Assembly (NCBI GenBank): GCA_035544895.1
Contig: DASZZM010000092.1
Location: 5,852 to 69,851, forward strand
Direction of reading: 5' to 3'
From: Thermoanaerobaculia bacterium
Lineage (GTDB): Bacteria; Acidobacteriota; Thermoanaerobaculia; Multivoradales; UBA5704
DNA length: 64,000 bases
Part shown: positions 13,348-63,395 of the stretch, one piece after another
Layout: each line of letters starts with the position of its first letter
Numbering within the stretch: the first letter of the stretch is position 1
The notes under the pieces: model-generated
Database searches by the model: none
Told to the model about the DNA's origin: nothing
Seen by the model: the letters and a program-made list of their open reading frames with translations, nothing else
Program-made: the position numbers and the translations under genes

Positions 13348-14810
13348 CGCCGCCCGGCCAGCGACAGGACGCCGAAAGGCGCCCAGATGGCAAGGAACAC
13401 CCAGGGCATCAGGTGAAGGCCTGTCGCCTGGGGCAGGTAAGAAAGGAGGATGAGACCGGACAGCGCCAGCCAGGCGGTGTGCCGGTACAACGCCGCCCAG
13501 GGCAAGACCCACAGCAGGTACCAGGGATAGACCGTGGCCGAGAGCAGCAGCAGCCAGGCGAACAACTTGCCGGTGCCGCGCGCCGGGCGGACCTGGCCGA
13601 GCGAGGCGGCGACCGCCGCGACCATACCGGCGCCGAGCAGGACCTTGGCCATGAGCTGCGGGTAGAGAAAGGGGTAGAGCGGATTGAACAGGGTATACTC
13701 GCCGCTCGCCCGCTTTGCCGCGTCGAGCAGCCTGGCGGCCGCGGGCGCGGCACCGGCGGCGTCGAGCAGGCGCCAGAGAGGCTCGAACAGCGGGCCGTTG
13801 AACTCCCACGAGACCGCATAGGTGACCAGGCCGCGCGGCAGCCCGCCGGTCGCTACCACGACCGGCAGGCCGGCGGCGGCCGCCATCACGAGCACGGCGA
13901 TCAGCACCCGCGCCGGCCGGCGGCTCTGCCGGCTCCACATGAGTAGGGCGGCCAGCGGCAGGAGCTTGGCGAGCACGCCCGCCGCCATCCAGGTGGCGGC
14001 GGCCCAGATGCCCCGGGCGGCACACGCATCCCGGGGAGAGGCGGCTGGCACGCATTTCTCATCAGTGGCCAGCGGTTGCCGCCGGGCGAGGCCGGTCAAG
14101 CAGAAAACCGCCCCCAGCGCCGCCGCTACCCCCAAGGCATCGACGTGTCCCATCCCGGCAACCTCCAGTGCCACCAGGGGGTTCCAGGCATACCAGACGG
14201 TCCTCTGCGGGGGTATGGAGAGCCGCCGGGCCAGGCCGAGCAGGAGCCAGCAGCCCAGGAGATCGGCCGCGGTGACCAGCGCTTTCCAGGCGAGGATTGG
14301 ATTGGGCAGCCGAGCCGCTATACTGAAGGCCGCGATCGAGAGCGGCGGATACACGGTCGGCACCTGAGGGTGGGGTACTCGCTGCCACGCCTCGTCGCGC
14401 AGGAGGGTGAGCGCCTCGGCTTGCGGCGTCAAGGCGTAAGGGTTATAGCCGGCCGCCGCCACCTTCCCATCCCAAAGGTAGCGCAGCGCGTCGTCCGACA
14501 GCGTCAAGGGCAGCGGCAGCATCGGCAGCCGTAAGAGCAGCGCTCCTGCCAGGACCGCTGCCGCGAAAGCGCGCCCGGAAGCGCGGGCCAGTTCCAGGCG
14601 GCGCGCTGACCAGGAGAGCCAGAGGAAAGCCGGCCCAAGAAGGGCCAGCACGAGGGGTAGATGATGAGCCAGGTCGAAGACGATCCACAGACCGACGTTC
14701 ACCGCAAGCAGCGGGAGCGCCGGGGCCAGCAGCGCCCAGGGCACCCTGGACCAGCCGGCCCGGAGCGCCGGCGATGAGCTTGGCCGTGGGAGGGCCGGCT
14801 CTGCTGGCAC
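13332..14810 (-). CDS. polytopic membrane glycosyltransferase-like protein (DUF2029/GT87-PMT-like)
   Basis: About 12 predicted TM helices, long hydrophobic protein with DUF2029-like pattern (…WNPLVALEVAGMGHVDALG…); overlaps truA by 16 bp. Start uncertain (divergent overlap with the next gene). Confidence 0.55.
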   Translation of the reverse strand: MPAEPALPRPSSSPALRAGWSRVPWALLAPALPLLAVNVGLWIVFDLAHHLPLVLALLGPAFLWLSWSARRLELARASGRAFAAAVLAGALLLRLPMLPLPLTLSDDALRYLWDGKVAAAGYNPYALTPQAEALTLLRDEAWQRVPHPQVPTVYPPLSIAAFSIAARLPNPILAWKALVTAADLLGCWLLLGLARRLSIPPQRTVWYAWNPLVALEVAGMGHVDALGVAAALGAVFCLTGLARRQPLATDEKCVPAASPRDACAARGIWAAATWMAAGVLAKLLPLAALLMWSRQSRRPARVLIAVLVMAAAAGLPVVVATGGLPRGLVTYAVSWEFNGPLFEPLWRLLDAAGAAPAAARLLDAAKRASGEYTLFNPLYPFLYPQLMAKVLLGAGMVAAVAASLGQVRPARGTGKLFAWLLLLSATVYPWYLLWVLPWAALYRHTAWLALSGLILLSYLPQATGLHLMPWVFLAIWAPFGVLSLAGRRWSSA

Positions 14811-20554: not shown

Positions 20555-20701
20555 CTCCGCAGTCTCGCCGAGCCCGCGGGGCTTGGCAAGCCCGCGCAAG
20601 GCGCCGGCGGCGCTGCAGGCCGGACGGCGGGAATCCGCCCCTGCCAATGGCGCGTTGCGTGTGTTGTAGTACTGTACGCGGCCGGGCGCCTGTCTAGGCG
20701 C

Positions 20702-20734
20702 CGATGTCCGCCCGATGTCCGCCCGATGTCCGCC
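20702..20734 (+). repeat. perfect 11-bp tandem repeat x3 (cgatgtccgcc) spanning the candidate start codons of the ClpX-like gene
   Basis: Sequence ...gcg ccgatgtccgc ccgatgtccgc ccgatgtccgc cgccattgtg...; each unit carries an ATG in a different frame. Only the third (20726) is in frame with the downstream ORF. Confidence 0.85.
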
Positions 20735-21844
20735 GCCATTGTGAGCCAGCCAGCCATGAAACCGGTCGAGATCTACAACTTCCTGGAACAGCACGTCATC
20801 GGCCAGCAAGAGACGCTGCGCTACGTCTCGGTGGCCATCTTCAAGCACCTCCAGGGCGAGAAGTACGGCAACCTGCTGCTGATCGGCAACTCCGGCACCG
20901 GCAAGACCACGATCATGCGCGCCGTGGAGGCGCTCTACGGCGCCTACCCGGAGTTCAGCGAATACCGCGTGGTCCTCATCATGAACGCGAGCACCCTCGC
21001 CGCCGAGGACGGGTCGGTCGATACCAGCCGCCTGTTCAGCCGCCTCGAAGAGCGCGTCCGCCTGCTCCTCGGTGGCGCCGCCTCGGCCGAGGAGGTCGTG
21101 CGGGCGATGGAGCGCGCCACCATCTGCCTGGACGAGATCGACAAGATCTCCGGAGTGATCGGCGGCAAACCCTACGTGACCGGGATCAACATCCAGCAGG
21201 CCCTGCTGACGCTGATCGAAGGCGAGCGGGTGCCGCTTGCGCTGACCGCGGTCCGCGGCGGGATCCCCGAGTCGACGTCGCTGTGGATCGATACCAGCAG
21301 GATGCTCTTTCTGTGCGCCGGAGCGTTCGAGAACCTCTACGACCAGGTTTTCGCGCGCGTCACCTCGGCCAAGAGCGGTGTCAAGCTGCCGACCACCACT
21401 ACTTATGTCAACGGCAAGATCCAGATTCGCGAGTACTTCACTCTGCGCAACCATTTCCGTCAGGAGGATCTTTTCGAATACGGGATGCAGCCCCAGTTCC
21501 TGTCCCGCTTCGACAACGCCGTCATTCTCGACGATCTCAACCCCGGCGTGCTCTGCCGTATCTTCAAGGAGCCGGCCAGCGGCGTCTTGCAGCTGTCGCG
21601 GAATTTTTTCCGCAAGTACGGGATCGATCTCGAGATCACCGACGACGCCGTGCAGAAGATCGCCGAGGAAGCTGCCAGGAGCAGCCGCATCGGCGCGCGC
21701 GCCTTGAAATCGGTCTATGGGCGGGTCATCAAGCCTTTCGAGTTCGATCCCTTCGCCCAGGGACAGATCGAGGCGGCCGGCGGACGTCACCGCCTGGTCA
21801 TCGACGAGTCCCTGGTGAGCAGCGCTCTGAAGCCGCCGGTTTAG
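20726..21844 (+). CDS. ClpX-like AAA+ ATPase lacking the N-terminal zinc-finger domain
   Basis: KPVEIYNFLEQHVIGQQETLRYVSVAIFKHLQ...NLLLIGNSGTGKTTIMRAVE...ICLDEIDKISG...ARALKSVYGRVI... follows the ClpX/HslU family layout, but there is no C4 zinc ribbon. Alternative start at ATG 20756 (MKPVEIY). Confidence 0.7.
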   Translation: MSAAIVSQPAMKPVEIYNFLEQHVIGQQETLRYVSVAIFKHLQGEKYGNLLLIGNSGTGKTTIMRAVEALYGAYPEFSEYRVVLIMNASTLAAEDGSVDTSRLFSRLEERVRLLLGGAASAEEVVRAMERATICLDEIDKISGVIGGKPYVTGINIQQALLTLIEGERVPLALTAVRGGIPESTSLWIDTSRMLFLCAGAFENLYDQVFARVTSAKSGVKLPTTTTYVNGKIQIREYFTLRNHFRQEDLFEYGMQPQFLSRFDNAVILDDLNPGVLCRIFKEPASGVLQLSRNFFRKYGIDLEITDDAVQKIAEEAARSSRIGARALKSVYGRVIKPFEFDPFAQGQIEAAGGRHRLVIDESLVSSALKPPV

Positions 21845-21861
21845 CAGCCGGCCTCCCAATC

Positions 21862-23922
21862 TTGGCCCTCCCCGATCCATCGCCGCGCGCGCGGAGCGCG
21901 ATCACCGCCGAGGTGGCGCGGCAGACCGCCGACGCGTTGGCCGCCAAGCACGGCAGCGGTCATGCCGAGCGCATCCGGCTCGGCGTCGAACAGGCGGCGC
22001 GCCACTGGTGGGCCGAAGATGGCGGCGCCGGGGACTTCAGCGCTTTCTGCCTGGCCAACTTCCTGGCCGACGAAGCCGCCCTGGCGAAGTGCTTCGCCCG
22101 GGTCGAACAGGTTCTCGAGCAGGTGGACGGGCATCTCTTCGAGGCGAGGCGCGAGCTCACCACCCCGCTCGATCTCGATACCGGCCCCCTGTCGCAGGTG
22201 GACCGCCTGTTCGCCGACGTCGACCTCGCGCCGCACGTCGACGAAAACCTGTTCCGCGCCAGGGTGGCATTCGTGGCGCTCCTCAACTTTCCGGTGCATA
22301 CGCTGGGCGAGCGCCTGGCGGGCGGCGCGGCATGGGACCGCGAGACCTGGGCGCGGTCGCGCATGATGGACCGCTTCGCCGCGCGCGTGCCGGCGGAGGT
22401 GCAGCAGCACGTTTCCCTGGCCTTCACCGCGGCCGAGGAGTACGTCGGCTCGTACAACATCCGCATGGACCGCCTGATCGACGCGCAGGGCCGACCGCTC
22501 TTTCCTCCCGGACTTCGCCTCCTCTCCCACTGGGGGCTGCGCGACGAGCTCGCGGCGCACTACGCCAACTCCGACCGCCGGGCGGCGCTCGCCCGGCAAC
22601 GCCTGATCGCCCGTGTCATGGAACGGATCGTGCGCCAGGAGATTCCGGCGGCGGTCGTCGACAACCCCGAGCTGCTGTGGGAGCCCGAGAGCAATCGAGT
22701 GCGGCCGGCGGGCGGCGGCGAGGCGGCCGGCGGCGCTGGCGGCGCTGGCGGCGATGGTGGCGAGCGTGAAGCGGACCGCCGCTACGCGCACCTTCTGGCC
22801 ATCTGCCGCGCCGTGCGCCAGGTCGATCCCTACAGCCCGGCGGCGCCCACCTACATCGCGCGCAAGTTCGAGCGCGAGCGGCAGATTCCTGAACGGGAGG
22901 TCGAGGCGCTGCTCGTCTCGGTGCTCGAAGCGCCGGAGGCCGAGCGGCTGGCGCGGCTGATCGAACGCCGCCTCGGCCGGCCACTCGAGCCGTTCGACAT
23001 CTGGTACTCCGGCTTCAAGAGCCGCGCCGCCCATGGCGAGGAAGAGCTCGACGCACGGACGCGGGCGCTGTATCCGACGCTCGAGCGGTTCCAGGCCGCG
23101 GTGCCGGAGATCCTGGAGCGGCTAGGCTTCGCGCCCGACAAGGCGCGCTGGCTGGCCGAGCGCATCATGGTGGACCCGGCGCGCGGCGCAGGCCACGCGC
23201 TGCCCGCCATACGCCGGCAGGACCGCGCTCACCTGCGCACCCGCCTCGGCCGGGACGGCATGGACTACAAGGGATTCAACGTCGCGCTGCACGAGATGGG
23301 GCACAACGTCGAACAGGTGTTTTCGCTCAACGGCATCGACCACTGGTGGCTCGCCGGCGTGCCCAACACCGCCTTCACCGAAGCCTTCGCCTTCGTCTTC
23401 CAGAAGCGCGACACGGAGCTGCTCGGCCTCGCCCCGCCCGCCGAGGAGGCGCGTCGCGCCGATGCCCTCGGCACCCTGTGGAACACCTTCGAGATCGCCG
23501 GCGTCTCTCTGGTCGACATGCAGGTGTGGCACTGGCTGTACGACCATCCGGAGGCGGCGGCGGCGGAGCTGCGGCAGGCCGTGCTGGCCATCGCGCGCGA
23601 CGTCTGGAACCGTTACTTCGTTCCTCTCTTCGGGGCGGCGACCCGCGACGCGGAAATCCTGGCCATCTACTCGCACATGATCGCCTATGGGCTCTACCTG
23701 CCCGACTACGCGCTCGGCCACATCATCGCTTCCCAGGTGGCGGGCCGTCTGCGCGAAGGCGACTTCGCCGGCGAGCTCGAGCGCCTGGCGCGGCAAGGCC
23801 GCCTCACCCCCGATGCCTGGATGCAAGGCGCCGTCGGCGGCCCGCTCTCCGCCCGCCCCCTGCTGGACGAAGCACGCCAGGCGCTGGACGCCCCCGGGCT
23901 GAGCAGTTCCGCCGCCGGCTGA
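21862..23922 (+). CDS. putative zinc metallopeptidase (HExxH...E, gluzincin-like), about 690 aa
   Basis: Long frame-1 ORF continuing from a TTG at 21862, 18 bp after the ClpX-like stop; ALHEMGHNVEQVF...(about 26 aa)...FTEAFAFVF fits HExxH plus a downstream Glu ligand. The listed ORF 20704..23922 is spurious upstream of 21862. Confidence 0.6.
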   Translation: MALPDPSPRARSAITAEVARQTADALAAKHGSGHAERIRLGVEQAARHWWAEDGGAGDFSAFCLANFLADEAALAKCFARVEQVLEQVDGHLFEARRELTTPLDLDTGPLSQVDRLFADVDLAPHVDENLFRARVAFVALLNFPVHTLGERLAGGAAWDRETWARSRMMDRFAARVPAEVQQHVSLAFTAAEEYVGSYNIRMDRLIDAQGRPLFPPGLRLLSHWGLRDELAAHYANSDRRAALARQRLIARVMERIVRQEIPAAVVDNPELLWEPESNRVRPAGGGEAAGGAGGAGGDGGEREADRRYAHLLAICRAVRQVDPYSPAAPTYIARKFERERQIPEREVEALLVSVLEAPEAERLARLIERRLGRPLEPFDIWYSGFKSRAAHGEEELDARTRALYPTLERFQAAVPEILERLGFAPDKARWLAERIMVDPARGAGHALPAIRRQDRAHLRTRLGRDGMDYKGFNVALHEMGHNVEQVFSLNGIDHWWLAGVPNTAFTEAFAFVFQKRDTELLGLAPPAEEARRADALGTLWNTFEIAGVSLVDMQVWHWLYDHPEAAAAELRQAVLAIARDVWNRYFVPLFGAATRDAEILAIYSHMIAYGLYLPDYALGHIIASQVAGRLREGDFAGELERLARQGRLTPDAWMQGAVGGPLSARPLLDEARQALDAPGLSSSAAG

Positions 23923-54470: not shown

Positions 54471-54752
54471 ATGGCTGAGCCCGCCGAGGGACTCAACGTC
54501 AAGATCAGTGACGAGGAGCTGAAGGGCCGTTACTCCAATCTTCTCCGCATCACGCATACGCGCGAAGAATTCATCCTCGACTTCATCAACTTGCTGCCGC
54601 CGCAAGGCATCGTCACCGCGCGCATCGTTTGCAGCCCGGGTCACCTGAAACGGATCATCCGCGCCCTTTCCGCCAATCTCGAGCGCTACGAGCAGGCGTA
54701 TGGCACGATCGACGAGGCCCCCGAGCCGGCCGGCGACAGCAGCATTCACTAG
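54471..54752 (+). CDS. DUF3467-like small protein
   Basis: AAGGAGG RBS; MAEPAEGLNVKISDEELKGRYSNLLRITHTREEFILDFINLLPPQGIVTARIVCSPGHLKRIIRAL. Confidence 0.6.
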   Translation: MAEPAEGLNVKISDEELKGRYSNLLRITHTREEFILDFINLLPPQGIVTARIVCSPGHLKRIIRALSANLERYEQAYGTIDEAPEPAGDSSIH

Positions 54753-55404
54753 CCGCCCGGCGGCCGCTCTGGCCCTGCTTTTCTGCCCGCTGGCCGGCTG
54801 GCTCGCCGGCGCGCTGGCCGCGGGCTGCCGCTCGACGGACGAGCGCCCCCAGCCCGCGATGGCCGATGCCTTGACCGATGGGCCGATGCGCTGGCTGCTG
54901 CTGCCCGAGGAGCGCCGGCAAGCGCGGCGGTTGCACAACTCCGCCGAGGCCGTCGAGTTCATCGGGAATTTCTGGCGGCGCCGCAACCCTGACCCGCGGT
55001 CGCCGCAGAACGACTTCGCGCGCGTGTTCTACGAGCGGGTCGAAAGCGCGGACCGCCTGTACGGCGAAGACGGCAGCCGCGGCAGCCTGACCGACCGCGG
55101 GAGGGCGTTGATCGTGCTCGGTCCGCCGCCGGAGCTGCGCTATGGCCAGAGGCGCCTCCCTTCCTGGGAGCCCGGCCAGCCGAGCTCCCGGCCTGCCATC
55201 CACACCCGCAACGTCGGAGTCGAGACGTGGAAGTACGAGTGGTCCGATCTGCCGCCGAAACTGGTCGCCCTGCTCGCCGCCGAGGCGCCGGGCCAGGAGG
55301 TGGTCCTGGTCTTCCTCGTCGACACCCACCACACCCGTCTCATCGAAGGCGGCCATCTCCTCGACCTTGCCGCCCGCGCCGCCGTCCACGACCCGATCCG
55401 CTAG
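54700..55404 (+). CDS. GWxTD-domain lipoprotein
   Basis: Lipobox LAGALAAGC; FWRRRNPDPRSPQNDFARVFYERVESADRLYG…SLTDRGRALIVLGPPPELRYG…ETWKYEW fits the GWxTD family. Confidence 0.65.
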   Translation: MARSTRPPSRPATAAFTSRPAAALALLFCPLAGWLAGALAAGCRSTDERPQPAMADALTDGPMRWLLLPEERRQARRLHNSAEAVEFIGNFWRRRNPDPRSPQNDFARVFYERVESADRLYGEDGSRGSLTDRGRALIVLGPPPELRYGQRRLPSWEPGQPSSRPAIHTRNVGVETWKYEWSDLPPKLVALLAAEAPGQEVVLVFLVDTHHTRLIEGGHLLDLAARAAVHDPIR

Positions 55405-55554
55405 TGTCCCGTCTGTGAAGGGCAGATGGAGACGCTGATGATAACTCAATATCATAGAGTAAGTTGCGAGATTCAAGGTGAAGACGCAGTAGACCCTGGG
55501 GAAGCGCCGGGGAAGCACGCGGAAGGCAATGAAAGCGCAGTGTGGAGCATGCGA
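55405..55554 (+). repeat. left arm of about 150-bp inverted repeat pair (IR-L)
   Basis: tgtcccgtctgtgaagggcagatggagacgctgatgataactcaatatcatagagtaagttgcgagattcaaggtgaagacgcagtagaccctggggaagcgccggggaagcacgcgg…gtggagcatgcgagcgtagctgag is about 95% identical to the reverse complement of 62660..62810; contains an IS66-like GTAAG terminus motif. Confidence 0.8.
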
Positions 55555-55570
55555 GCGTAGCTGAGCCCGA

Positions 55571-55888
55571 TTGGCCGCCATCGCCGGGCAAGTGACACGC
55601 TATGTCGAGGACGGCATCCTCGACATCGACAACAACCGCGCCGAACGAGCACTGCGGCGCGTGGCGGTGGGTCGCAAGAACTGGATGTTCGCCGGCAGCG
55701 ATGAGGGTGGGCGCCGAGCGGCGATCATCTACAGCCTCGTCGCCAGCTGCGCTCTGCTGAAGGTGAATCCGTTTGCCTACCTTCGCAACGTCCTGGAGCG
55801 CTTCCCCTCCTGCTGCCCTGCCGACCTCAGCCAGCTCACGCCGAAGGTCTGGCAAGAGAGCCACACCAACCCTGCCACGACCGTCTGA
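55571..55888 (+). mobile_element. IS66-family transposase (TnpC) C-terminal remnant, about 105 aa, 5' about 80% deleted
   Basis: VEDGILDIDNNRAERALRRVAVGRKNWMFAGSDEGGRRAAIIYSLVASCALLKVNPFAYLRNVLERF…LTPKVW matches the conserved C-terminus of IS66 TnpC (IDNNxAERALRxxAxGRKNWLFAGS…YSLxxTCKLNGVNPxxYL). Confidence 0.75.
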
Positions 55889-56137: not shown

Positions 56138-56836
56138 TCAAATCAGTTGTTTTATAGCTCCCGCTAATATTTGTATGCCGCGTGTTACGTAAGGCGCCAC
56201 AAAGACGCTGTGTAGCGCCAAGACAGGAAAGGCAATTAGCACGAATGCAGCGAATGTCCGAAGCAGACTGATCCCCTGAACATCCGCCAACCATCTCGCG
56301 ACAATGGGCGCGCCAAATATTACTATAATAGCAAATGTTGCGAAGCCGAAGATCATGGCCCATGCAGGGACAGCTGCCGTGGGGGCATGGCTTGTGTCTA
56401 TGAAATCGGTTGGCGAAAGGTACCAAAGCATTGGAAAAGAGCAAATTAGCATCAACGGTCCAGAGAAACTTACCCAGATGCAATATGCCACGAATGTTCG
56501 ACCGATGGGGGCGGTCCCGCGAAACGCTCTCAACGCCAGATGAACAACCAGGACGAGCAGGAGCTGGCCATACAAGAACTGAAGCAGGAAGGAGATTTTG
56601 TCCAATTCCAGTTTCTTGTGTAAAATTATTGGTATATAAATAACAAATGATATCGCAACGCTATAGAGAAAAATCTTCAGCGCTTTAGAGACACAGAAGA
56701 GTTCTAACCTCCGCTTTGCAAACTGGCCCCGAAGCCGTACGATTTCTACTACGGTCGCGTAATACATTCCAAATCCCTCGAGAATATTCGTAGGACTTAT
56801 CGCATCCGCGAAAGGATCCATATCCGTTTCTTTCAT
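56138..56836 (-). CDS. hypothetical polytopic membrane protein in AT-rich (about 48% GC) segment
   Basis: MKETDMDPFADAISPTNILEGFGMYYATVVEIV… with five or six hydrophobic helices; local GC about 20 points below the surroundings; GGGGAG RBS. Confidence 0.5.
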   Translation of the reverse strand: MKETDMDPFADAISPTNILEGFGMYYATVVEIVRLRGQFAKRRLELFCVSKALKIFLYSVAISFVIYIPIILHKKLELDKISFLLQFLYGQLLLVLVVHLALRAFRGTAPIGRTFVAYCIWVSFSGPLMLICSFPMLWYLSPTDFIDTSHAPTAAVPAWAMIFGFATFAIIVIFGAPIVARWLADVQGISLLRTFAAFVLIAFPVLALHSVFVAPYVTRGIQILAGAIKQLI

Positions 56837-58698
56837 TCTGACTCCCCGTCCCTCGCGGGATCTTGCGTTGCTTTCACGCCACCTAAGAAGCAAAGATGTC
56901 GTGCTCGCTTGTCGCGAGCTCGGGCCGGGTCTCCCAAGACTCGAGTAGAACATCACGGGCAATCTTGCGCTCCGTCGCTACGTCGGAAGGAGAAGCAATG
57001 AAGACTTTGAAAACCGTTGCGCCGTAGGGCACGCTCAACTCTCCTATCTTCGGAGTATGTCTCGCCGTCGAACGCACTCGAGACGATGGCGTGACTTCTG
57101 GGCCTGCCCGCAAAGTGCGCCCGGTCTTTCCTATTGTCAACCTCCAAGGTAGAGGATAGTGCCCGCTATGTGGTTAAGACAAATAGCAATTTGCGTATGG
57201 ACGAAGAAGCAGCCGGGATCCGAGTTTGGAGGATCTCGGAATCTTGCCTGGCTGGCTGGTCGGCCTTCTCCTATTTTCCCAGAGATGGCTGTTCCTCGAT
57301 CGGTACCGGGTCGGGGTTACGGGTACCGCCATAAACGTCAGTGCCCGCGAGCGAAGCGAGCGTGGCACAACAACCCGGCGGCGATCCGGCCTCGACCCTT
57401 ACGAGAAGCGGGGTGCAGGGGGGAAGCCCCCCTGCTCCGATTGGCCCGGCCGGGGCGCTGACCGTTGCAGGAGCGAAGAAGGGTGCGGGGTGAGGGGGGG
57501 AGCGCCGGGCTGCCGGGACGGGCCTTGGAAATGGACGCCTACGGCCAGCTGGTGCGGCCGGTGCTCGGGATCGACGGCGAGTTCGCCGCACCAGCACCGG
57601 CGGCGACTTACACCGCTTTCGTGCCTCTGGCCAGCCTACCAACGCCGGGTGGCCGGGCGTCAAGGGTGAACCGCGCTGCGCGCGGCGGCTGCGCCGCCCT
57701 TGACCCCCGGCCACTCGGCGTGGTGCAAGTAGACTGTGGCGAGGGGGGGAGAAGCCGGCTCAGGAAGGAAGATCACCTTCCCCCGCCCACCCACCCTCTC
57801 TCCTAATCCCGACTGCGAGGGGGCCGGCGCGGTCCCCGCGGCGGCCCCCGCCACCGTCCGTAGGGAGTCCACACCGAGCGGCGGCCGAGCCGCTGCCGCG
57901 ATCACCAGCCGGCACGCCGCCGCACTCTGCCGGCACCGCCATCTGTACCGAGCCGGCACACCTGCGCAGAGCGCTCGCAGTCTGCCGGCAGGCTGCCGCA
58001 GAAACCGGGATGCAAGCGGCAAGGCAATCCCGCCTGGTCGACGGCATAAAACCCGGTGCTCGCGTGCGGGCGGTCACCAGGCCGAACTGGACGTGGGCGC
58101 CCCGGCCTTCTGCTGGGGCGACCTTCGCCGCGTTCGTGCCTCCTGTTCGTTCGTACGGTGAGGTTTCGTGAAGCTCACGACCCCCATCACCCGTGAAACC
58201 GCACCAGGATGCGCGCTCGGACGCCGTCCCCTCCCCGATTCCGACCTCCGCCGCCTCTACGGCCGACAATCCCTCGCGCTCGGATCTTTCCCGATTCATG
58301 GCGAGCGAGAAAATGGGGTGCCCCGTGAAGGCGAGATTCCACGCCTCCACGTCAGGAGAATGAGAATGGCGCCGGCAGCTCGAGTCCGAGACGCTCTCTT
58401 GCAGGGTGAGTAGCAAGCCGGGTTCCTGTGCTACGCACAGGAACCGCTCGCTTCGCTCGCGATAGCTTGGCGGCTCACTTCGTTCGCCAACAACGGTTCC
58501 TCCGACGGGGCTGGCGCCCCGCCTCCGGTCGCTTCAAGTGACGCGTCCGCTGGCCTCCTCGTGCTCTCTCTAGTCGCGGCACAGCGCCGCCCGGGCGGTG
58601 TTAAGGTAGAGACTCGGCCGATACGGGAATCACGCACGTTCGAGCCTGCCAGATTTCCGCAAGCTGCGAATCGAGACCTGTCCGCAAGGACCGAGGAC

Positions 58699-61600
58699 AT
58701 GCCGCCGCTCCTCTTGCTCCACCTCTCCGACCTTCATTTCGGTCCTCACAGTCGCTTCGTTAGCGAGAGCCCCGAGCGGCTGGGCGAGAGCTTCCACCGC
58801 GCGTTGGTCGCCGCCCAGGACAAGATCGGGCTTGCCGATCACAGAATCGAGTTGGTGTTGGTCACGGGCGATGTCGCTGAGGCGGGGAAGCGCTCCGAAT
58901 TTGAGAACGCCCGGCGCTTCCTCGCGGCCCTCGCCGGTGGACTCGGCCTCGTCGCCGGCCGATTCGTCTTCGTTCCCGGTAACCACGACATCAACTGGGC
59001 CTCCTGCAAGCGGGTCGAGGCCGAACTTGAGGAGCGGGAGGAACTCGCCCCCGAGCTTCTGCGGCGCCGCCTTGACGAGGTCAAGCTCGACATCTACTTC
59101 GAGTTCCTCAGATCCTTCTATGGCGTCGCGGACCTCGCGGAAGTAGCCGCGCCGCTGGGCCGGGGCGCGAATCTTTTCCGCTTCCCCCAACTTCGACTTG
59201 CCGTGGCCGCGCTCAACTCCTGCGAGAAGGAATCTCATCGCCCGGCGGACCACGCGGGCCTGGTGAGCCGGGAACAGGCCGAGGCTGCGCTTTCGGCCTT
59301 GAGGGGTGCCGAGGTCGCCGCGTGGCTCAAGCTCCTCGCGGTCCACCACAATCCGGTTGTCACGACGCCCGGCAACCTCGCAGCTTGGCGACGATTCCTC
59401 GAGGTGAAAGGCGGGTTCGACGCCGAACTTCTCGCTCGCTATGAGAGCGACGCCCTCGGTTTTGATGGGCGAGGGCTCCGAGCGGTAGCGGCGGATGCCA
59501 GAGTCCAGCTCGTCCTCCACGGTCACCATCACGCCCAGGACAAGCAGACCTGGGACTGGAGCGGACCTGGGCACACGCACGTGCTCTCAGCGGGTAGTCT
59601 GGGTCTCCAGCCCGAGGTGCTCCCCAAAGACGAACCTGCCTCCGCCCGCCTGATCGTGCTTGACATTGAGCGGCAGGAGATCCGCGCCCATTCGGTCGTC
59701 TACATCGCCTGGCACCGCCCGGCAGGCGCGGTCGAGTGGGGCGCCTTCGCTCCAGACCCGGCCGGCTGGATGGTCCAGCGCCTCGATCTGCCAGAGGGAT
59801 ATGCAACCGCCGCAACCGCGGCGGCCCACGCGCCGCCTCCTGCCCTCGATACCGACTTCCTTCGCACCTTCCGCCAGCGCCTCCGCGACACCTATAGCCG
59901 TTGGGACATCGGGTCGCTCGGCGCGCTCCGGCCAGGTGGCGTTCAGGCCGGCGACGCCCCGCTCGATGACATGTATCTCGAGCTTCGCTTCACCTCCTGG
60001 CTCGATCCGATAAACACCTTTGACAATCGACCTCTGCGCCCGGACGACCTTCTCGGCCGGAACCGACCGCTTGTGCTTCGGGGCGCCGGCGGCTCCGGCA
60101 AGACCACCTGGGCACGTTTCACCTTCAGCCAGCTGGCGCTCGACGACCGAGCCCTGCCGCTGATGCTCGTTCTGCGCGATGTCGCGCGGCGGTGGCAGCT
60201 CCCGGAGAGCGCGGGCGAGGAACGCTCGATTGACGCAGCGCTCGACGCCTGGATCGGCAGCCAGATGGGGATCGGCTGGCGCGGCCGCCTTGCGAGCCTT
60301 CTCAAGGCCGGGGACGGCCCGCGGCCCATCCTTCTGGTGGACGGTTGGGACGAACTCGGCCCGCTCGGCAGCGAACTGCGGGGCAAGCTTCTCGGTTTCA
60401 TCCGTGAGCACCCGCGCGTTCTCGCTGTCGTCACCAGCCGGCCCTACGGGCAGGACCCGCCTTCGCATAGCGAGGGCTTCGAGGTCGTCGACCTCCAACC
60501 GCTCTCGGACAGCGACATCAAGCAGCTGACCCGCAAGTTCTTCCGCCGCTTCGCGAGCGGCGGCGAGGCCAGCGTAGGCGACGAGTGCTGGCGCTTCCTT
60601 GAGGCGCTCGAACACAACCGCGACGCTCAAGATCTTGCGCGGACGCCGCTGCTGCTCACCATGCTGCTCCTCGTCGGGCACTCTCAACCGCTTCCCGACA
60701 AGCGGCACCTGCTCTACGAGAAGTGCGTCGACGCGCTCCTCCACGCTAGGCCGGAGCAGAAGACTGCTGAGGGCGCCCTCGCAGGTAGCCACCTCTGGAC
60801 TCCGCCGGACCTCGACCGCCGCCGGCGGTGGGTCGCCACCCTCGCATACAACGTTCAAAGCGCCGGGTACAGGGAGACTTCCCGTGGTCCCATCGTCCGT
60901 TCCTGGGAGGAGATGAGGACACTGCTACCCGAAGAGTGCGCGCGTGATCGCCGCGACGGCTTCCTCGCCTGGCTCGTCGAGACCGCGGGCCTCCTCTCCG
61001 ACCGCGCCGATGGTACTCTTGCCTTCTCCCACTTAAGCTTTCAGGAGTACCTCGCCGCTTACCATCTGGAAACCACCGCCGCAGATGCCGGCGAGCGGCG
61101 CGCGGCCTTCGGTCAAAGGATCCCGGATTTCCAGTGGTGGGAAACGCTCCGCCTGCTCGGCGCGCAGATCGAGACGCGAAACCCAGCCTTTCTCGATGCC
61201 GTGCTTGACGGCCTTGTTCAGGCGCCGGCCTCCGAGTACGCGCTCGCCTTCGCAGGCACTGTCTTCGCCGACGGCCTCGGTCCTGTCCTCCTTTTCCAGG
61301 AATGGCTGTCGCTCTGGTTGAAGGCTCTCGCGCGCGCGTTCCCACCGGGGGTCGGCTACTGCTGGGGAGCCTGGCGCTCTTCACGACAGGAGAAGCGTAA
61401 GGGTCTTCTGCGGGAGGCGCTCTCCACACAAGCCTCAGGACAGACCTGGCTCGGTTGGGTGCGATTCGAGGAATTCGACCCGGCGTCGTACACTGTCCTC
61501 TCCAGGCCCACGGGCAGGCTCGCACGCCTCCTGATCGATGGGCTCAAGGATGGACCGCTGACTCAGGAGGGCATCGCCGCCGGGCGTGTGCTGGCCGGCT

Positions 61601-62571
61601 TCGAGCCTTTGTGGCCAACCTGGGAGGAGGTTGGGCACCTTCAAGCGTGGCCTTCGCGGCGGCGGCGGTTCGGCCTTCAGCTGCAGGCCTTTCTCGCCGC
61701 GGGAGTTCCAACCAGTTCCCTCGTTAAGCTTGCGCGTGCGATTGCACCGCAGGCCTTGGACGCCGCGAGTCGCGGCTTGGCTCGAGATTTGGCGCGCAAC
61801 TTGGCTCACGAGTTGGCTCTGGACCTGGCGCCTCACTCCGGGGCTGACAAAGTTGGCGAGGCAATTGGCTACTTGGCGTGCGACTGGGCTTCGCACTTGG
61901 CTTCGCACTTTACTTCGGACCTGGAGACCCGCCAGTTGCCTTTCCACTGGCCTCCCCGATTCGGCCAGATCTGGGTTTTCAGCCAGCTTTTCCCGGGCTT
62001 TGCTTCCTTTATGGCTCGCAACTTGGTTCGGGAAGATCCTGACAAACCGTCTTTCCTCTGGGCCGGCGCCTGGGCTCGCGGCTTGGCCTCCAAGCTTGCT
62101 CTCGATCCGATTCCGGACTTCACCCTCAGCTGGGTCCTCTCCTCTGGATTTGCCGCTGGCCGTGCATTCCTCGCCGCCCAGCGAGATTTCAGTCATCCCG
62201 AAACGTTATCAGCGTTATCGCGCCTCCTTTCTGCGGCCTGCTGCCTCTCGTTCCGCCCGGAGAGTCAAAGCGAGCTCCCAGTCTCAGTCGGCCCTCACTT
62301 AGATTGTCTTTGGCCCGCGCTAGCGCGGCACCTCGCGCGGCGCAGCACTGCCCAAGATCGCGAGCTCCTTGTCGATCTCGCTCGCGATCCCGCAAAACGC
62401 GAGCCGCCGCTGCAATGGGGTCTCCGCTTCATCGTCCGCGGTGATCTGCTTCTAGACGACGGTTCGTTCCTGGCCCTCGACGAGCTAACTGACCAGGCCG
62501 GCATCGAGCGCCTTCCTCTGCTTGACGAGATGGAGCCCGAGCTGGACGTGGCCTGGGAAAACGGCTCTTGA
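58699..62571 (+). CDS. STAND NTPase: N-terminal calcineurin-like metallophosphoesterase plus NACHT P-loop NTPase plus C-terminal helical repeat region (1290 aa)
   Basis: MPP motifs LHLSDLHFG (DxH), LVTGDVAEAG (GD), FVPGNHD (GNHD), LAVHHNP (H), VLHGHHHAQ (GHxH). NACHT: Walker A LRGAGGSGKTTWA, Walker B ILLVDGWDELG, VVTSRP (NACHT TSR motif). C-terminus has LARDLARNLAHELALDLA-type repeats. Start at ATG 58699 (MPPLLLLHLSDL). Confidence 0.8.
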   Translation: MPPLLLLHLSDLHFGPHSRFVSESPERLGESFHRALVAAQDKIGLADHRIELVLVTGDVAEAGKRSEFENARRFLAALAGGLGLVAGRFVFVPGNHDINWASCKRVEAELEEREELAPELLRRRLDEVKLDIYFEFLRSFYGVADLAEVAAPLGRGANLFRFPQLRLAVAALNSCEKESHRPADHAGLVSREQAEAALSALRGAEVAAWLKLLAVHHNPVVTTPGNLAAWRRFLEVKGGFDAELLARYESDALGFDGRGLRAVAADARVQLVLHGHHHAQDKQTWDWSGPGHTHVLSAGSLGLQPEVLPKDEPASARLIVLDIERQEIRAHSVVYIAWHRPAGAVEWGAFAPDPAGWMVQRLDLPEGYATAATAAAHAPPPALDTDFLRTFRQRLRDTYSRWDIGSLGALRPGGVQAGDAPLDDMYLELRFTSWLDPINTFDNRPLRPDDLLGRNRPLVLRGAGGSGKTTWARFTFSQLALDDRALPLMLVLRDVARRWQLPESAGEERSIDAALDAWIGSQMGIGWRGRLASLLKAGDGPRPILLVDGWDELGPLGSELRGKLLGFIREHPRVLAVVTSRPYGQDPPSHSEGFEVVDLQPLSDSDIKQLTRKFFRRFASGGEASVGDECWRFLEALEHNRDAQDLARTPLLLTMLLLVGHSQPLPDKRHLLYEKCVDALLHARPEQKTAEGALAGSHLWTPPDLDRRRRWVATLAYNVQSAGYRETSRGPIVRSWEEMRTLLPEECARDRRDGFLAWLVETAGLLSDRADGTLAFSHLSFQEYLAAYHLETTAADAGERRAAFGQRIPDFQWWETLRLLGAQIETRNPAFLDAVLDGLVQAPASEYALAFAGTVFADGLGPVLLFQEWLSLWLKALARAFPPGVGYCWGAWRSSRQEKRKGLLREALSTQASGQTWLGWVRFEEFDPASYTVLSRPTGRLARLLIDGLKDGPLTQEGIAAGRVLAGFEPLWPTWEEVGHLQAWPSRRRRFGLQLQAFLAAGVPTSSLVKLARAIAPQALDAASRGLARDLARNLAHELALDLAPHSGADKVGEAIGYLACDWASHLASHFTSDLETRQLPFHWPPRFGQIWVFSQLFPGFASFMARNLVREDPDKPSFLWAGAWARGLASKLALDPIPDFTLSWVLSSGFAAGRAFLAAQRDFSHPETLSALSRLLSAACCLSFRPESQSELPVSVGPHLDCLWPALARHLARRSTAQDRELLVDLARDPAKREPPLQWGLRFIVRGDLLLDDGSFLALDELTDQAGIERLPLLDEMEPELDVAWENGS

Positions 62572-62659
62572 GGAGAGGGAGCATTTTGAGGCCGTGGTGA
62601 TGGCGCCGCGGGCGGTTGCCCTGTCCGCAGCTGTCTCTCGAAAGGAGCCCCGCATCGAC

Positions 62660-62810
62660 CTCAGCTACGCTCGCATGCTCCACACAGCGCCTTCATTGTC
62701 TCCCGCGTGCTTCCCCGGCGCTTCCCCAGGGTCTAGTGCGTCTTCACCTTGAATCTCGCAACTTACTCTATGATATGGAGTTATGATCAAGGTCTCCTTC
62801 AGCCCTTCAC
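62660..62810 (-). repeat. right arm of about 150-bp inverted repeat pair (IR-R)
   Basis: Reverse complement of 62660..62810 aligns with 55405..55554, including tgtcccgtctgtgaagggc…ataactc(a/c)atatcatagagtaagttgcgagattcaaggtgaagacgca…ggaagcacgcgg…gtggagcatgcgagcgtagctgag. Confidence 0.8.
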
Positions 62811-62870
62811 AGACGGGACACCAGTACCTCGCTCTACCCCTCGCCCACGTCGCCAGCGAGGCTCGAGTGT

Positions 62871-63395
62871 CTATCCGGGCTGAGCGATCTTGAGCAGCTC
62901 GACTTCGAAGCGCAACGAGGCGCCGGGGGGAACGATGGCGCCGGCGCCTTGCCGGCCATAGCCGAGCTCGGGGGGAACGACCAGTCGCCGCTTGCCGCCC
63001 ACGCGCATGCCGGCGATGCCCTCGTCCCAAGCCTTGATCACCTGGCCCTTGCCGAGCTGGAAACGGTACGGCTGCTTGGGATCGAGACTCTCGTCGAACT
63101 TGCGCCCATCGCTTTCGAGCCAACCGGTGAACAGGACCTCGACGATGCTTCCGGACTTCGCTTCCGCGCCTTCGCCGACCTTGAGATCGAAATACTTCAA
63201 GCCCGAAGGAGTGACGATCTCCTTGGCCTCTTCTTTCGCCGGTTCCACCGGCTTGAGCTCCTGCTGCGCCACGCCAGTGGCCGGCGGCGTGGATTGCACG
63301 GCCATCGCGGCCATCGCAGCCATCGCGGTCATCGCAGCCATCGCAGCCATGGCGGTCGCCAGGAGAGCAGGCGCCAAAAACCGGAAATGACTCAT
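62871..63395 (-). CDS. FKBP-type peptidyl-prolyl cis-trans isomerase, secreted
   Basis: …GLKYFDLKVGEGAEAKSGSIVEVLFTGWLESDGRKFDES…FQLGKGQVIKAWDEGIAGMRVGGKRRLVVPPELGYG…GASLRFEVELL is an FKBP domain; signal peptide carries (AMA)n. Confidence 0.85.
   Translation of the reverse strand: MSHFRFLAPALLATAMAAMAAMTAMAAMAAMAVQSTPPATGVAQQELKPVEPAKEEAKEIVTPSGLKYFDLKVGEGAEAKSGSIVEVLFTGWLESDGRKFDESLDPKQPYRFQLGKGQVIKAWDEGIAGMRVGGKRRLVVPPELGYGRQGAGAIVPPGASLRFEVELLKIAQPG
63301..63354. repeat. 9-bp tandem repeat x6 (gccatcgcr) inside the FKBP signal-peptide coding region
   Basis: gccatcgcg gccatcgca gccatcgcg gtcatcgca gccatcgca gccatggcg encodes AMAAMAAMTAMAAMAAMA on the minus strand, in frame. Confidence 0.8.

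Follow-up and report, generated by a model that had tools for sequence, protein, structure and literature searches.

A probable NLR-related immune protein with a metallophosphoesterase effector, a NACHT NTPase and a hypervariable helical sensor in a Thermoanaerobaculia bacterium

The window analysed here is a stretch of 64,000 nucleotides from contig DASZZM010000092.1 (GenBank assembly GCA_035544895.1) of a Thermoanaerobaculia bacterium. It contains on its + strand a real, intact gene, which starts at an ATG at position 58699, ends with a stop codon at 62571 and is preceded by a GAGGA Shine-Dalgarno-like element located 4-8 nt upstream of the ATG. Homologues have the same start point, the ORF shows no frameshifts and keeps every motif intact, and its 1290-aa product matches at 100% identity a public entry named 'metallophosphoesterase [Thermoanaerobaculia bacterium]'. 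The features of the gene and of its surroundings are the following:

55401..55571, no strand: inverted-repeat arm 1 (171 nt), 92% complementary to 62654-62824
55571..55888, + strand: C-terminal remnant of an IS66-family transposase, abutting arm 1 (Pfam)
56138..57140, - strand: low-GC foreign cargo within the bracket (GC 0.44-0.54 against 0.68)
56138-56962, - strand: TM-rich ORF in the low-GC cargo
56883-57140, - strand: 85-aa ORF in the low-GC cargo, resembling the N-terminal stub of a DUF4062/TIR-like effector
58699..62571, + strand: metallophosphoesterase (MPP)-NACHT-helical sensor gene, 1290 aa plus stop (ORF list and translation)
58699..59733, + strand: N-terminal calcineurin-like metallophosphoesterase effector, aa 1-345 (five motifs)
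58729-58737, + strand: MPP motif D11-x-H13
58867-58872, + strand: MPP motif G57-D58
58978-58989, + strand: MPP motif G94-N95-H96-D97
59344-59349, + strand: MPP motif H216-H217
59518-59532, + strand: MPP motif H274-G275-H276-x-H278
59734..60063, + strand: beta-rich extension and low-confidence linker from effector to NACHT, aa 346-455 (model, alignment)
60064..61245, + strand: NACHT NTPase module with NBD, helical and winged-helix subdomains, aa 456-849 (Pfam, motifs, Foldseek)
60082-60108, + strand: Walker A, G462-AGGSGKT-T470
60331-60354, + strand: Walker B, LLVD548-G-W-D551-E552
60433-60444, + strand: T-S580-R581-P582 (TSRP)
61024-61053, + strand: winged-helix His motif, F-S-H778-LSFQEYL
61246..62568, + strand: C-terminal all-alpha sensor region, aa 850-1290 (model, alignment)
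61774..61917, + strand: what decay has left of the tetrapeptide tandem array of the family (12-nt unit, in frame), LARD-LARN-LAHE-LALD-LA..., LASHLASHFTSDL (direct repeats, TRF)
62299-62478, + strand: conserved C-terminal cap, aa 1201-1260
62654..62824, no strand: inverted-repeat arm 2, pairing with arm 1 and beginning 83 nt past the stop codon of the gene

A sequence-only reading of this DNA had placed the gene in an island bracketed by inverted repeats beside IS remnants, and the 171-nt arms, the IS66 remnant and a GC trough (44-54% at 56.1-57.3 kb, compared with 68% overall) bear this out. The inverted repeat has only two copies in the window, and its core 37-mer is found twice where 0 occurrences are expected by chance. 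The transposase remnant covers positions 242-283 of the 284 of Pfam DDE_Tnp_IS66 (E 2.5e-14) and matches IS66_C (E 3.3e-8). A Pfam search of the ORFs of the low-GC cargo gave no match; the 85-aa ORF matches the PADLOC PDC-S60 model PDLC05050 (positions 4-32 of 906, E 3.1e-5). In the window, the gene sits in an acquired, mobile-island context.

The order of effector, NTPase and sensor proposed in that reading is supported by Pfam domains, conserved motifs and structure models. Pfam Metallophos (PF00149) is found on aa 6-279 with 41.7 bits (gathering score 21.5) and Pfam NACHT (PF05729) on aa 456-616 with 34.0 bits (gathering score 26.7), so both assignments exceed their gathering scores. The five metal-binding motifs, which had been noticed near the N-terminus, all lie at aa 11-278 in the Metallophos domain, and they are invariant or near-invariant in an alignment of the 86 full-length homologues (33-69% identity) in which motif conservation was scored. 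In the same 86 homologues Walker A, Walker B, TSRP and the winged-helix His are all invariant, in agreement with the NACHT-type P-loop NTPase initially recognised. Confident AlphaFold2 models were obtained for aa 1-440 (pLDDT 87.0, pTM 0.83) and aa 401-1290 (pLDDT 86.6, pTM 0.84), and the best Foldseek matches of the NACHT model are NOD2, NLRP3 and NLRC4 (E 2.7e-9 to 1e-6). Both modules are joined by the extension and linker at aa 346-455, which exhibits high entropy and indels in the homologue alignment and, at aa ~380-440, a pLDDT of 41-65.

The NCBIfam 'anti-phage phosphoesterase' model DS9_1 matches the MPP domain with its entire calcineurin part (E 5.5e-30), and the NCBIfam model DS8 matches it with its start (E 5.1e-13). 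Judging from these profile matches, it is homologous to the MPP domains of two validated antiphage systems, DS-9A and DS-8, and its closest characterised relative is the "Calcineurin-CE" of DS-9A/MisA. It is proposed that the domain belongs to a 'conflict-effector' branch of the calcineurin-like phosphoesterases. Elsewhere, the same domain is joined to NB-ARC, TPR, WD40+TIR, FGE-sulfatase sensors and CHAT+SAVED.

Two other activities can be considered for this domain within the same NLR-like immune logic. According to the first, which is judged improbable, the MPP would be a cyclic-nucleotide or signal phosphodiesterase that, once activated, degrades a cyclic (oligo)nucleotide messenger and not bulk metabolites. 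Among solved structures, the nearest folds include those of Rv0805 and Lmo2642, which are class-III cNMP phosphodiesterases, and of SMPDL3A/B; homologues carry the JGI annotation 'CpdA', although the NCBIfam CpdA model gives 12.6 bits where its cut-off is 225. The relative fused to CHAT+SAVED (P0111) lies in a context of cyclic-oligonucleotide signalling, and the authors of the DS-8 study propose an unidentified cyclic nucleotide as the substrate of that protein, by analogy with SMPDL3A and cGAMP. However, the nearest characterised relative, DS-9A/MisA, is an NAD+/(d)NDP phosphoanhydride hydrolase and not a cNMP phosphodiesterase, no cyclase or other signalling partner was found in the window or in the homologous loci, and messenger removal is not an obvious terminal output for a stand-alone NLR with sister proteins that bear killers of the TIR, SIR2 or NIR type.

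The second activity, less probable still, is that of an Mre11/SbcD-type nuclease which would degrade phage or host DNA/RNA once activated. The best named PADLOC match is indeed a CBASS-type 'Effector / Endonuclease' (PDLC00736, E 1.1e-6, aa 7-115), and an Mrr nuclease stands in for the MPP in one relative with the same chassis (L035). The SbcD matches are weak (TIGR00619, E 0.005, 16.6 bits where the cut-off is 77.65; in the PDB, SbcD/Mre11, E ~8e-4 when the family profile is used), and the homology that spans the full domain is to DS-9A, whose activities have been measured on nucleotides.

The C-terminal ~490 aa had been described as some 500 aa of degenerate helical repeats. This part is certainly all-alpha, being modelled entirely as helices with pLDDT mostly of 80-97, but it holds no uniform repeat; instead, it combines a hypervariable stretch with a conserved helical domain that flanks it. 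This sensor core (aa ~870-1200) has an identity to homologues of 0.10-0.30 with many indels, while the cap reaches 0.6 and the enzymatic parts are conserved. In the family, the hypervariable segment is an in-frame 12-nt tandem array that can reach ~28 copies, with as much as 95% identity among them, and its unit encodes [L/F/W]-A-R-[D/Y]. In the window copy, 'LARDLARNLAHELALDLA' is a short, decayed leftover of this tetrapeptide array, which is much longer in homologues: the direct repeat family D1 keeps the 12-nt spacing and TRF reports period 12 with 3.3 copies at 82%, compared with 18-28 copies at the same position in homologues. The repeats turn over rapidly within the family and, given the decay of the array relative to close relatives, sensing by the window copy may be reduced or altered.

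The sensor family is rare (262 clusters among 1.84 billion representatives), is hosted by Acidobacteriota, Myxococcota and Magnetococcales, and has a patchy phyletic distribution in which some genomes hold paralogues. The plasmid and phage collections searched contain no member, and viral contigs hardly any. The same NACHT and sensor chassis bears other N-termini in place of the MPP, namely TIR (9 of 36 shorter members, plus L032, L039 and L044), DUF4062/NIR (three members), SIR2 (two members, plus L045), PNP, Mrr, CHAT and a bacterial Death-like domain. No conserved partner gene appears across the homologous loci, where the 119 immediate neighbours (31 loci) are heterogeneous and include few PIN, Uma2, AbiEii-like, MkoA-like or STAND genes.

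The island had been taken as the usual context for defence cargo, but this does not generalise, as most homologues have ordinary genes around them; five Acidobacteriota loci keep the gene in a stable position between a Methyltransf_28 gene and nuoA of the nuo operon. In these five loci the gene shows 68-77% identity and its neighbours 79-93%, so that its divergence is only moderately faster. The association of the family with defence islands is weak. These data bear on a further explanation, in which the protein would not be antiviral but would serve Acidobacteriota and Myxococcota, as a STAND-type protein, in signal transduction or in self/non-self discrimination (kin recognition, programmed cell death), its phosphoesterase tuning metabolism or nucleotide signalling, perhaps in connection with respiration. 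The nuo synteny (in L005 the stop codon of the gene overlaps the nuoA start), the mostly ordinary neighbours, the absence from phages and plasmids, and the enrichment in Myxococcota, social bacteria rich in STAND proteins, are consistent with it. Nevertheless, the N-termini found on the chassis are the canonical repertoire of immune and cell-suicide effectors and not regulators, the sensor is hypervariable with repeats turning over fast, the phyletic pattern is patchy, the surroundings are mobile or defence-like in the window and in Corallococcus, and DS-8 and DS-9 show the MPP clade working in defence, which makes this explanation rather implausible. The antiphage role first suggested for the gene is likely in view of the effector swaps and of the MPP homology to DS-8 and DS-9A.

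The protein is very probably an NLR of immunity or conflict whose MPP effector acts as an enzyme. The preferred reading, which is probable as a whole, is that of a stand-alone bacterial NLR-related (bNACHT-type) immune protein in which an MPP activated by NACHT oligomerisation depletes NAD+ or nucleotides. We infer the trigger, the activation by oligomerisation, the substrate and the protection against phages as follows. The protein would probably be an auto-inhibited monomer at rest, and its hypervariable helical region would sense a cue of infection, a phage protein being the likeliest candidate. Sensing would license nucleotide-dependent oligomerisation of the NACHT module, which would gather the N-terminal MPP domains and activate them. 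[quoted passage not shown]

Among known systems, DS-8 (E. coli WP_032203427.1; NCBIfam NF053861) resembles the window protein in joining, within one polypeptide, a metallophosphatase at the N-terminus and a NACHT NTPase behind it. Its mutations D52A, N84A and Walker A K375A abolish defence, and D52 (Asp of GD), N84 (Asn of GNH) and K375 would correspond, by motif position, to the intact D58, N95 and K468. Orthology was rejected: the score is 47.7 bits, the equivalog cut-off is 790, and of the 994 profile positions only 1-94 align, over the first ~100 aa of the 1290-aa protein. The window protein is also ~280 aa longer than DS-8, with a longer spacing from MPP to NACHT, its helical tetrapeptide-repeat sensor is a separate small family, and its family is hosted by Acidobacteriota and Myxococcota and not by E. 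coli.

The similarity to the Calcineurin-CE of DS-9A/MisA (NCBIfam NF053862) extends over model positions 196-483 of 486 with the same metal-binding motifs, and here too orthology was rejected (104.6 bits, equivalog cut-off 420). This enzyme (PUA-Cal-HAD / DS-9A / Metis MisA) has been biochemically characterised as converting NAD+ to NMN+AMP and (d)NDP to (d)NMP; it depletes dNTPs or NAD+, two papers disagreeing on the physiological substrate. In contrast to DS-9A/Metis, the window protein has neither a PUA sensor nor a HAD partner, and a NACHT oligomer would take the place of the higher-order assembly (m6-dAMP-induced filaments) that activates that system.

With the bNACHT proteins of Kibby et al. 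2023 and the Avs STANDs, the protein shares the tripartite effector-NACHT-sensor layout, the NACHT motifs including the winged-helix His, a fold nearest to those of NOD2, NLRP3 and NLRC4, and a chassis that is conserved while its N-terminal effector varies. However, no tested member is closely related (the best NCBIfam NACHT antiphage match is EruA, E 0.003), the sensor matches none of the listed types (LRR, TPR, HEAT, beta-propeller, pentapeptide, FGS), and the link of the family to defence islands is weak. The N-terminus also matches PDLC05051 of PADLOC PDC-S60 (positions 3-93 of 1027, E 6.4e-7), sibling of the model that matches the neighbouring 85-aa ORF, although only ~90 N-terminal positions align; the two models suggest that PDC-S60 groups proteins of ~1000 aa, each encoded by a single gene, that differ in their N-terminal effector. 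Fungal NLRs with highly internally conserved (HIC) repeats (Podospora het-d/het-e type) likewise have tandem-repeat sensors of DNA near-identical within a gene and differing between genes, which suggests that the sensor repeats diversify by gain, loss and shuffling as in those proteins. This is an analogy that implies no homology, as the unit here is 4 aa (12 nt) and not a WD40, ANK or TPR of ~30-40 aa, and the array is no longer regular in the window copy.

The sequence-only reading had held that a phosphoesterase effector in this position was not a characterised type. This is contradicted by the list of N-terminal bNACHT effectors of Kibby et al. 2023, which includes calcineurin-like phosphoesterases, by DS-8, a single metallophosphatase-NACHT protein found with DefensePredictor and validated as antiphage, and by the biochemistry of Calcineurin-CE; calcineurin-like phosphoesterases are now counted among the NAD+-depleting types of immune effector. 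Since the MPP-NACHT architecture was catalogued in 2023 and its protection against phages shown in 2025-26, the gene described here adds a member to a family and not a new kind of system.

The best-supported reading of the MPP-NACHT protein, which joins an N-terminal metallophosphoesterase (MPP) domain to a NACHT NTPase and a C-terminal all-alpha sensor region (aa 850-1290), is that of a putative bNACHT-type immune protein. The order effector, NTPase, sensor, which had been proposed in the sequence-only reading, proved right, as the Pfam Metallophos and NACHT matches, both above their gathering scores, are followed by a C-terminus of about 490 aa that is all-helical in the structural model. 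The start codon ATG 58699 had also been correctly chosen, because homologues start at 'LLHLSDLHFG' and this codon is preceded, at 4-8 nt, by a GAGGA element; an alternative GTG at 58561 would extend the protein by 46 aa. ORFs overlapping the gene in other frames or on the other strand were discarded as high-GC artefacts. A public entry annotated as 'metallophosphoesterase [Thermoanaerobaculia bacterium]' has an identical sequence, which assigns the window to an Acidobacteriota MAG. The main features of the MPP-NACHT protein are the following.

Features of the MPP-NACHT gene and protein
58699-62571, + strand: ORF from ATG to stop codon, 1290 aa
aa 6-279: Pfam Metallophos PF00149, profile positions 3-190/191, 41.7 bits (gathering score 21.5)
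D11/H13: MPP motif DxH
G57-D58: MPP motif GD
G94-N95-H96-D97: MPP motif GNH[DE]
H216-H217: MPP motif H
H274-G275-H276-x-H278: MPP motif GHxH
aa 456-616: Pfam NACHT, profile positions 1-165/167, 34.0 bits (gathering score 26.7)
G465/G467/K468/T470: NACHT Walker A
D548-G-W-D551-E552: NACHT Walker B with acidic residues
S580-R581-P582: NACHT sensor-1 Arg (TSRP)
H778 in F-S-H778-LSFQEYL: NACHT winged-helix His

Every one of the five metal-binding motifs recognized earlier is present, being invariant or at least 90% conserved in an alignment of 86 full-length homologues (33-69% identity). The NACHT motifs, including the Walker A, Walker B and TSRP sequences that had been noticed before, are invariant in the same homologues. 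We take H778 to be the counterpart of H443 of NLRC4.

The protein was modelled as two pieces, each with its family alignment, and both models are confident (pLDDT 87.0 and pTM 0.83 for aa 1-440; pLDDT 86.6 and pTM 0.84 for aa 401-1290). The MPP domain shows the beta-sandwich fold of the PF00149 superfamily, with the following scores in fold comparisons.

Fold comparison of the MPP domain (score)
Lmo2642: 21.8
Rv0805: 20.3
GpdQ: 19.9
purple acid phosphatase: 19.5
SMPDL3B: 19.1
zebrafish dimetal phosphatase 2nxf: 19.0
SbcD/Mre11: about 12-15

An output as Mre11-like nuclease, to which weak HMM matches point, is very unlikely given its lower structural rank. An identity as SbcD/Mre11 nuclease was rejected, with 16.6 bits against a cut-off of 77.65 for TIGR00619 and a fold that is not the closest one. 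A PDB search by sequence returned weak matches only (Rv0805, GpdQ, SbcD) and did not detect a PUA-Cal structure. The best Foldseek match of the MPP domain was PDB 9a6c_B (E 6.9e-15), an integrative model of YydB with YydD from B. subtilis, for which reason yydB-yydD may be another conflict system using the MPP effector clade. In the NACHT part, the top 24 Foldseek hits all correspond to NOD2, NLRP3 and NLRC4 (E 2.7e-9 to 1.6e-6), above other AAA+/STAND proteins; the modelled middle part of the protein is closest to animal NLRs.

A word-indexed search retrieved more than 100 full-length homologues, and a genome scan 388 relatives. These are found in Acidobacteriota (Thermoanaerobaculia, Holophagales), Myxococcota (Polyangium, Kofleriaceae, Haliangiales, Enhygromyxa, Corallococcus), Magnetococcales, Hydrogenedentes and Planctomycetota, with two copies in some genomes. 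The NACHT and sensor parts constitute a chassis on which the N-terminal effector is exchangeable. This chassis is rare and well delimited: when 1.84 billion representatives were searched exhaustively with HMMER, using just the sensor (aa 850-1290), no more than 262 clusters at 50% identity were obtained, 226 of them at E<=1e-10. Confirmed alternatives to MPP are TIR (protein P0102 and homologue loci L032, L039 and L044), Mrr (L035) and SIR2 (L045), while the case for CHAT (L040) is weak. Among 36 chassis proteins of the shorter class, the domains found were NACHT (35), TIR_2 (9), Metallophos (4), DUF4062/NIR (3), SIR2 (2), and PNP, CHAT and a bacterial Death-like domain (bDLD3), with one each.

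With its TIR, SIR2, DUF4062, PNP, CHAT, bDLD3 and Mrr variants, the family shares with antiphage bNACHT and Avs systems the exchange of immune effectors on a conserved NTPase and sensor. Conversely, the MPP domain is found fused to NACHT, NB-ARC, TPR, WD40+TIR, FGE-sulfatase sensors and CHAT+SAVED and, like Calcineurin-CE domains, is placed as effector in diverse conflict systems. This mix-and-match of domains is the strongest in-silico argument that the protein probably has an immune or conflict role and that MPP is its putative output domain. The family represents a compact natural experiment, with no fewer than eight different effectors on one chassis, and its repertoire is dominated by enzymes targeting NAD+ and nucleotides, which fits the substrate suggested by homology to DS-9A, the PUA-Calcineurin-CE protein also known as MisA.

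The most interesting lead, a property of the family more than of the copy in the window, lies in the sensor. Identity to homologues is 0.45-0.67 in MPP and NACHT, falls to 0.10-0.30 with many indels at aa ~870-1200, and is about 0.6 at aa 1201-1260. The hypervariable segment (aa ~1020-1140) consists of a tandem tetrapeptide array, [L/F/W]-[A/S]-R-[D/Y/N], whose consensus over 683 units is L/F/W at position 1, A (62%) at position 2, R (89%) at position 3 and D/Y at position 4. In homologues, the variable region of 240 aa contains a median of 12 units (range 2-34), and the longest in-phase run of consecutive units is 23. The 'degenerate helical repeats' described earlier over some 500 aa were therefore right in spirit, although the repeats are confined to a limited segment. 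At the DNA level, many orthologues exhibit in-frame 12-nt arrays at a common position of the gene.

In-frame 12-nt arrays in orthologues (locus handle, coordinates in the locus)
L037, 13106-13419: 26.2 copies, 95% match
L006, 13069-13287: 18.2 copies, 95% match; translation includes ...WARDWARDWARDLARDWARD...
L019, 13119-13434: 26.3 copies, 88% match
L034, 13203-13498: 24.7 copies, 84% match
L036, 12885-13184: 25.0 copies, 86% match
L042, 13240-13578: 28.2 copies, 66% match

The unit sequences vary from gene to gene, and this specificity, together with the high identity within arrays, indicates recent and independent expansions. Array lengths of 2-34 units, up to 95% DNA identity within a gene and gene-specific units suggest that such expansions recur, probably by slippage or unequal recombination. 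The window gene conserves a decayed array, of which a remnant is found at 61774-61917 (LARDLARNLAHELALDLA; TRF period 12, 3.3 copies, 82%). It can be tentatively proposed, as a possibility more doubtful than probable, that a bacterial NLR family diversifies its sensor by means of an in-frame 12-nt minisatellite. If so, ligand specificity or activation threshold would change in the manner of a contingency locus, which would provide bacterial NLRs with a new route to vary recognition and might be useful in sensor engineering. The sensor types reported in the bNACHT paper (LRR, TPR, HEAT, beta-propeller, pentapeptide, FGS) include nothing resembling this array, and a literature search found no tetrapeptide-repeat sensor described for bacterial NLR, NACHT or STAND proteins. 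Fungal NLRs, with their highly internally conserved repeats, offer the nearest concept, as a conceptual parallel.

In the window, the gene is located within about 7.1-7.4 kb bracketed by inverted repeats, next to the end of an IS66 transposase gene, so that the island beside an IS remnant described from the sequence was borne out.

Features of the bracketed segment and its flanks (window coordinates)
left of arm 1: DUF3467 gene
54700-55404, + strand: GWxTD-domain ORF, 234 aa, Pfam match to profile 29-118/172, ending exactly at arm 1
55401-55571: inverted-repeat arm 1, 171 nt
directly inside arm 1: last ~100 codons of an IS66 transposase
1.2 kb: GC trough (44-54% vs 68%) containing a TM-rich ORF and an 85-aa ORF
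56138-57140, - strand: multi-TM ORF (232-274 aa, no family match) and overlapping 85-aa ORF of the trough
57300-58700: GC-rich region of ~1.4 kb directly 5' of the MPP-NACHT gene
62654-62824: inverted-repeat arm 2, 171 nt, 92% match to arm 1, beginning 83 nt after the MPP-NACHT stop codon
right of arm 2: FKBP-type isomerase and amidohydrolase genes

The inverted repeat has no further copy in the window, its core gave no match in two exact-match scans of metagenome contigs, and its arms have no match in Rfam. Their outer ends show no visible target-site duplication, and they were not recognised as IS end, MITE or RNA. They hold a promoter-like TTGAAT...TATGAT stretch and a small palindrome, and possibly represent transposon ends, an inversion/duplication scar or an invertible segment. 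The insertion may have cut short the GWxTD-domain ORF. The 85-aa ORF overlaps the multi-TM ORF in another frame and holds a 'FKVFIASPSDVATERKIARDVL' motif similar to the N-terminus of the PDC-S60 model PDLC05050 (PADLOC, E 3.1e-5), and may be what is left, after frameshift or truncation, of a further effector gene of DUF4062/TIR-like type. Region 57300-58700 has no family matches and no ORF with coding-like GC3, for which reason its ORFs were dismissed; it may consist of pseudogene debris or be an unusually long leader. The MPP-NACHT gene itself (GC 0.66, GC3 0.76) is slightly under the host genes. The bracketed segment is an old, decayed insertion mosaic, and the result for the window is mostly ordinary, namely plausible single-gene defence cargo in such an insertion.

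Two other features of the window deserve mention. The ORF 62871-63395 (- strand), whose product resembles FKBP-type peptidyl-prolyl isomerases, contains a 9-nt tandem repeat (five copies, 63290-63352) that encodes a 'AMAAMAAMTAMAAMAAMA' run in a signal-peptide-like region at the N-terminus. A 1218-aa ORF (18227-21880, - strand) with a UvrD-type helicase core at aa ~450-1080 gives strong matches to the GajB and DRT-helicase models of PADLOC (E to 1e-103); it was rejected as evidence of a defence system, as UvrD/AddA-like helicases with housekeeping functions are detected by these models as well.

In other genomes, an all-against-all BLAST of neighbours in 31 loci revealed no conserved partner gene beyond lineage-specific synteny, which fits a single-gene system. 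In one Thermoanaerobaculia genome the gene is found between arginine-biosynthesis, tyrS and topoisomerase genes. In five Acidobacteriota loci (L002/L007, L004, L005/L008, L037 and L048), the orthologue occupies one conserved site between a Methyltransf_28 gene, presumably of the MidA/NDUFAF7 type, and nuoA of the NADH dehydrogenase operon. In L005 the stop codon of the orthologue and the start of nuoA overlap (13996-13999), suggesting co-transcription. A STAND role other than antiviral, to which this nuo synteny could point, is regarded as highly improbable. Between genomes of this clade the orthologue is 68-77% identical, versus 79-93% for its neighbours, and it therefore evolves faster than them, albeit not dramatically so.

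With respect to the immune reading, only a few PIN, Uma2, AbiEii-like, MkoA-like or STAND/WD40 genes were found among 119 immediate neighbours. Plasmid and phage records gave no match in a tblastn search with the MPP domain, and a scan of viral contigs gave just two weak, MPP-only matches. The association of the family with defence islands appears weak, and context is regarded as neutral to mildly negative for a defence role. The island had been regarded as the usual setting of defence cargo, which is not generally true of homologues, most of them being surrounded by ordinary genes. DS-8, the antiphage metallophosphatase-NACHT protein of E. coli, was found by a method built for systems outside defence islands.

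The sequence-only reading had considered a phosphoesterase effector joined to NACHT to be uncharacterised, and this claim is contradicted by the literature. In the list of Kibby et al., the enzymatic effectors at the N-terminus of bacterial NACHT proteins include calcineurin-like phosphoesterases. DefensePredictor (bioRxiv 2025, Science 2026) led to the validation of DS-8, in which one E. coli protein unites metallophosphatase and NACHT, and whose defence is abolished by D52A, N84A and the Walker A mutation K375A. The observation itself was thus confirmed, and its interpretation was right on architecture and on the probable immune role, but wrong on novelty. DefensePredictor also validated DS-9, the first gene of which carries a homologous metallophosphatase. 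DS-9 has since been dissected as PUA-Calcineurin-CE-HAD, in which Calcineurin-CE (defined by Nicastro et al. [quoted passage not shown] The same system has been published as Metis, with MisA being an NAD+ diphosphatase switched on by m6dAMP. Within the Calcineurin-CE clade, NAD+ diphosphatase and/or (d)NDP phosphohydrolase activity is known from E. coli PUA-Cal/MisA alone, and a 2026 preprint counts calcineurin-like phosphoesterases among the NAD+-depleting types of immune effectors.

From the parts present in the MPP-NACHT protein and their homologies, we infer the trigger, mode of activation, substrate and protection as follows. Engagement of the sensor would release auto-inhibition, and oligomerisation of NACHT would then cluster and activate a phosphoanhydride hydrolase of the Calcineurin-CE type, which would drain the NAD+ and/or (d)NDP/(d)NTP pools and lead to abortive infection. 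The authors of the DS-8 study suggested a cyclic-nucleotide phosphodiesterase output, which is considered unlikely for the MPP domain. JGI annotates many homologues as CpdA or class-III cAMP phosphodiesterase, an assignment that was rejected (PRK11148, 12.6 bits against a cut-off of 225).

Compared with the known systems by means of NCBIfam models rather than direct pairwise alignment, aa 6-311 of the protein match positions 196-483/486 of the DS-9A model NF053862 (E 5.5e-30), which is exactly its calcineurin part, with 104.6 bits against an equivalog cut-off of 420. DS-9A/MisA consists of PUA and Cal and has a HAD partner; in contrast, the MPP-NACHT protein lacks the PUA region, no HAD gene adjoins it in the window, and it does not belong to this equivalog. 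With DS-8 it shares a metallophosphatase followed by NACHT on one polypeptide, but the match to NF053861 covers profile positions 1-94/994 only (E 5.1e-13) and, with 47.7 bits, stays below the cut-off of 790. PADLOC gave N-terminal partial matches only, to the candidate system PDC-S60 and a CBASS 'endonuclease' effector model. The strong partial match to DS-9A and the match to DS-8 over 94 positions, both below the cut-offs, place the MPP effector, as judged by profile comparison, in the same conflict-effector branch of the superfamily as DS-8 and DS-9A, with the protein orthologous to neither. The family extends the metallophosphatase-NACHT class into Acidobacteriota, Myxococcota and Magnetococcales, and ties it by sequence to biochemically characterised Calcineurin-CE effectors, from which a testable hypothesis of NAD+/nucleotide phosphoanhydride hydrolysis follows for DS-8-like proteins. 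The MPP-NACHT protein represents a new, uncharacterised family inside a known and now validated kind.
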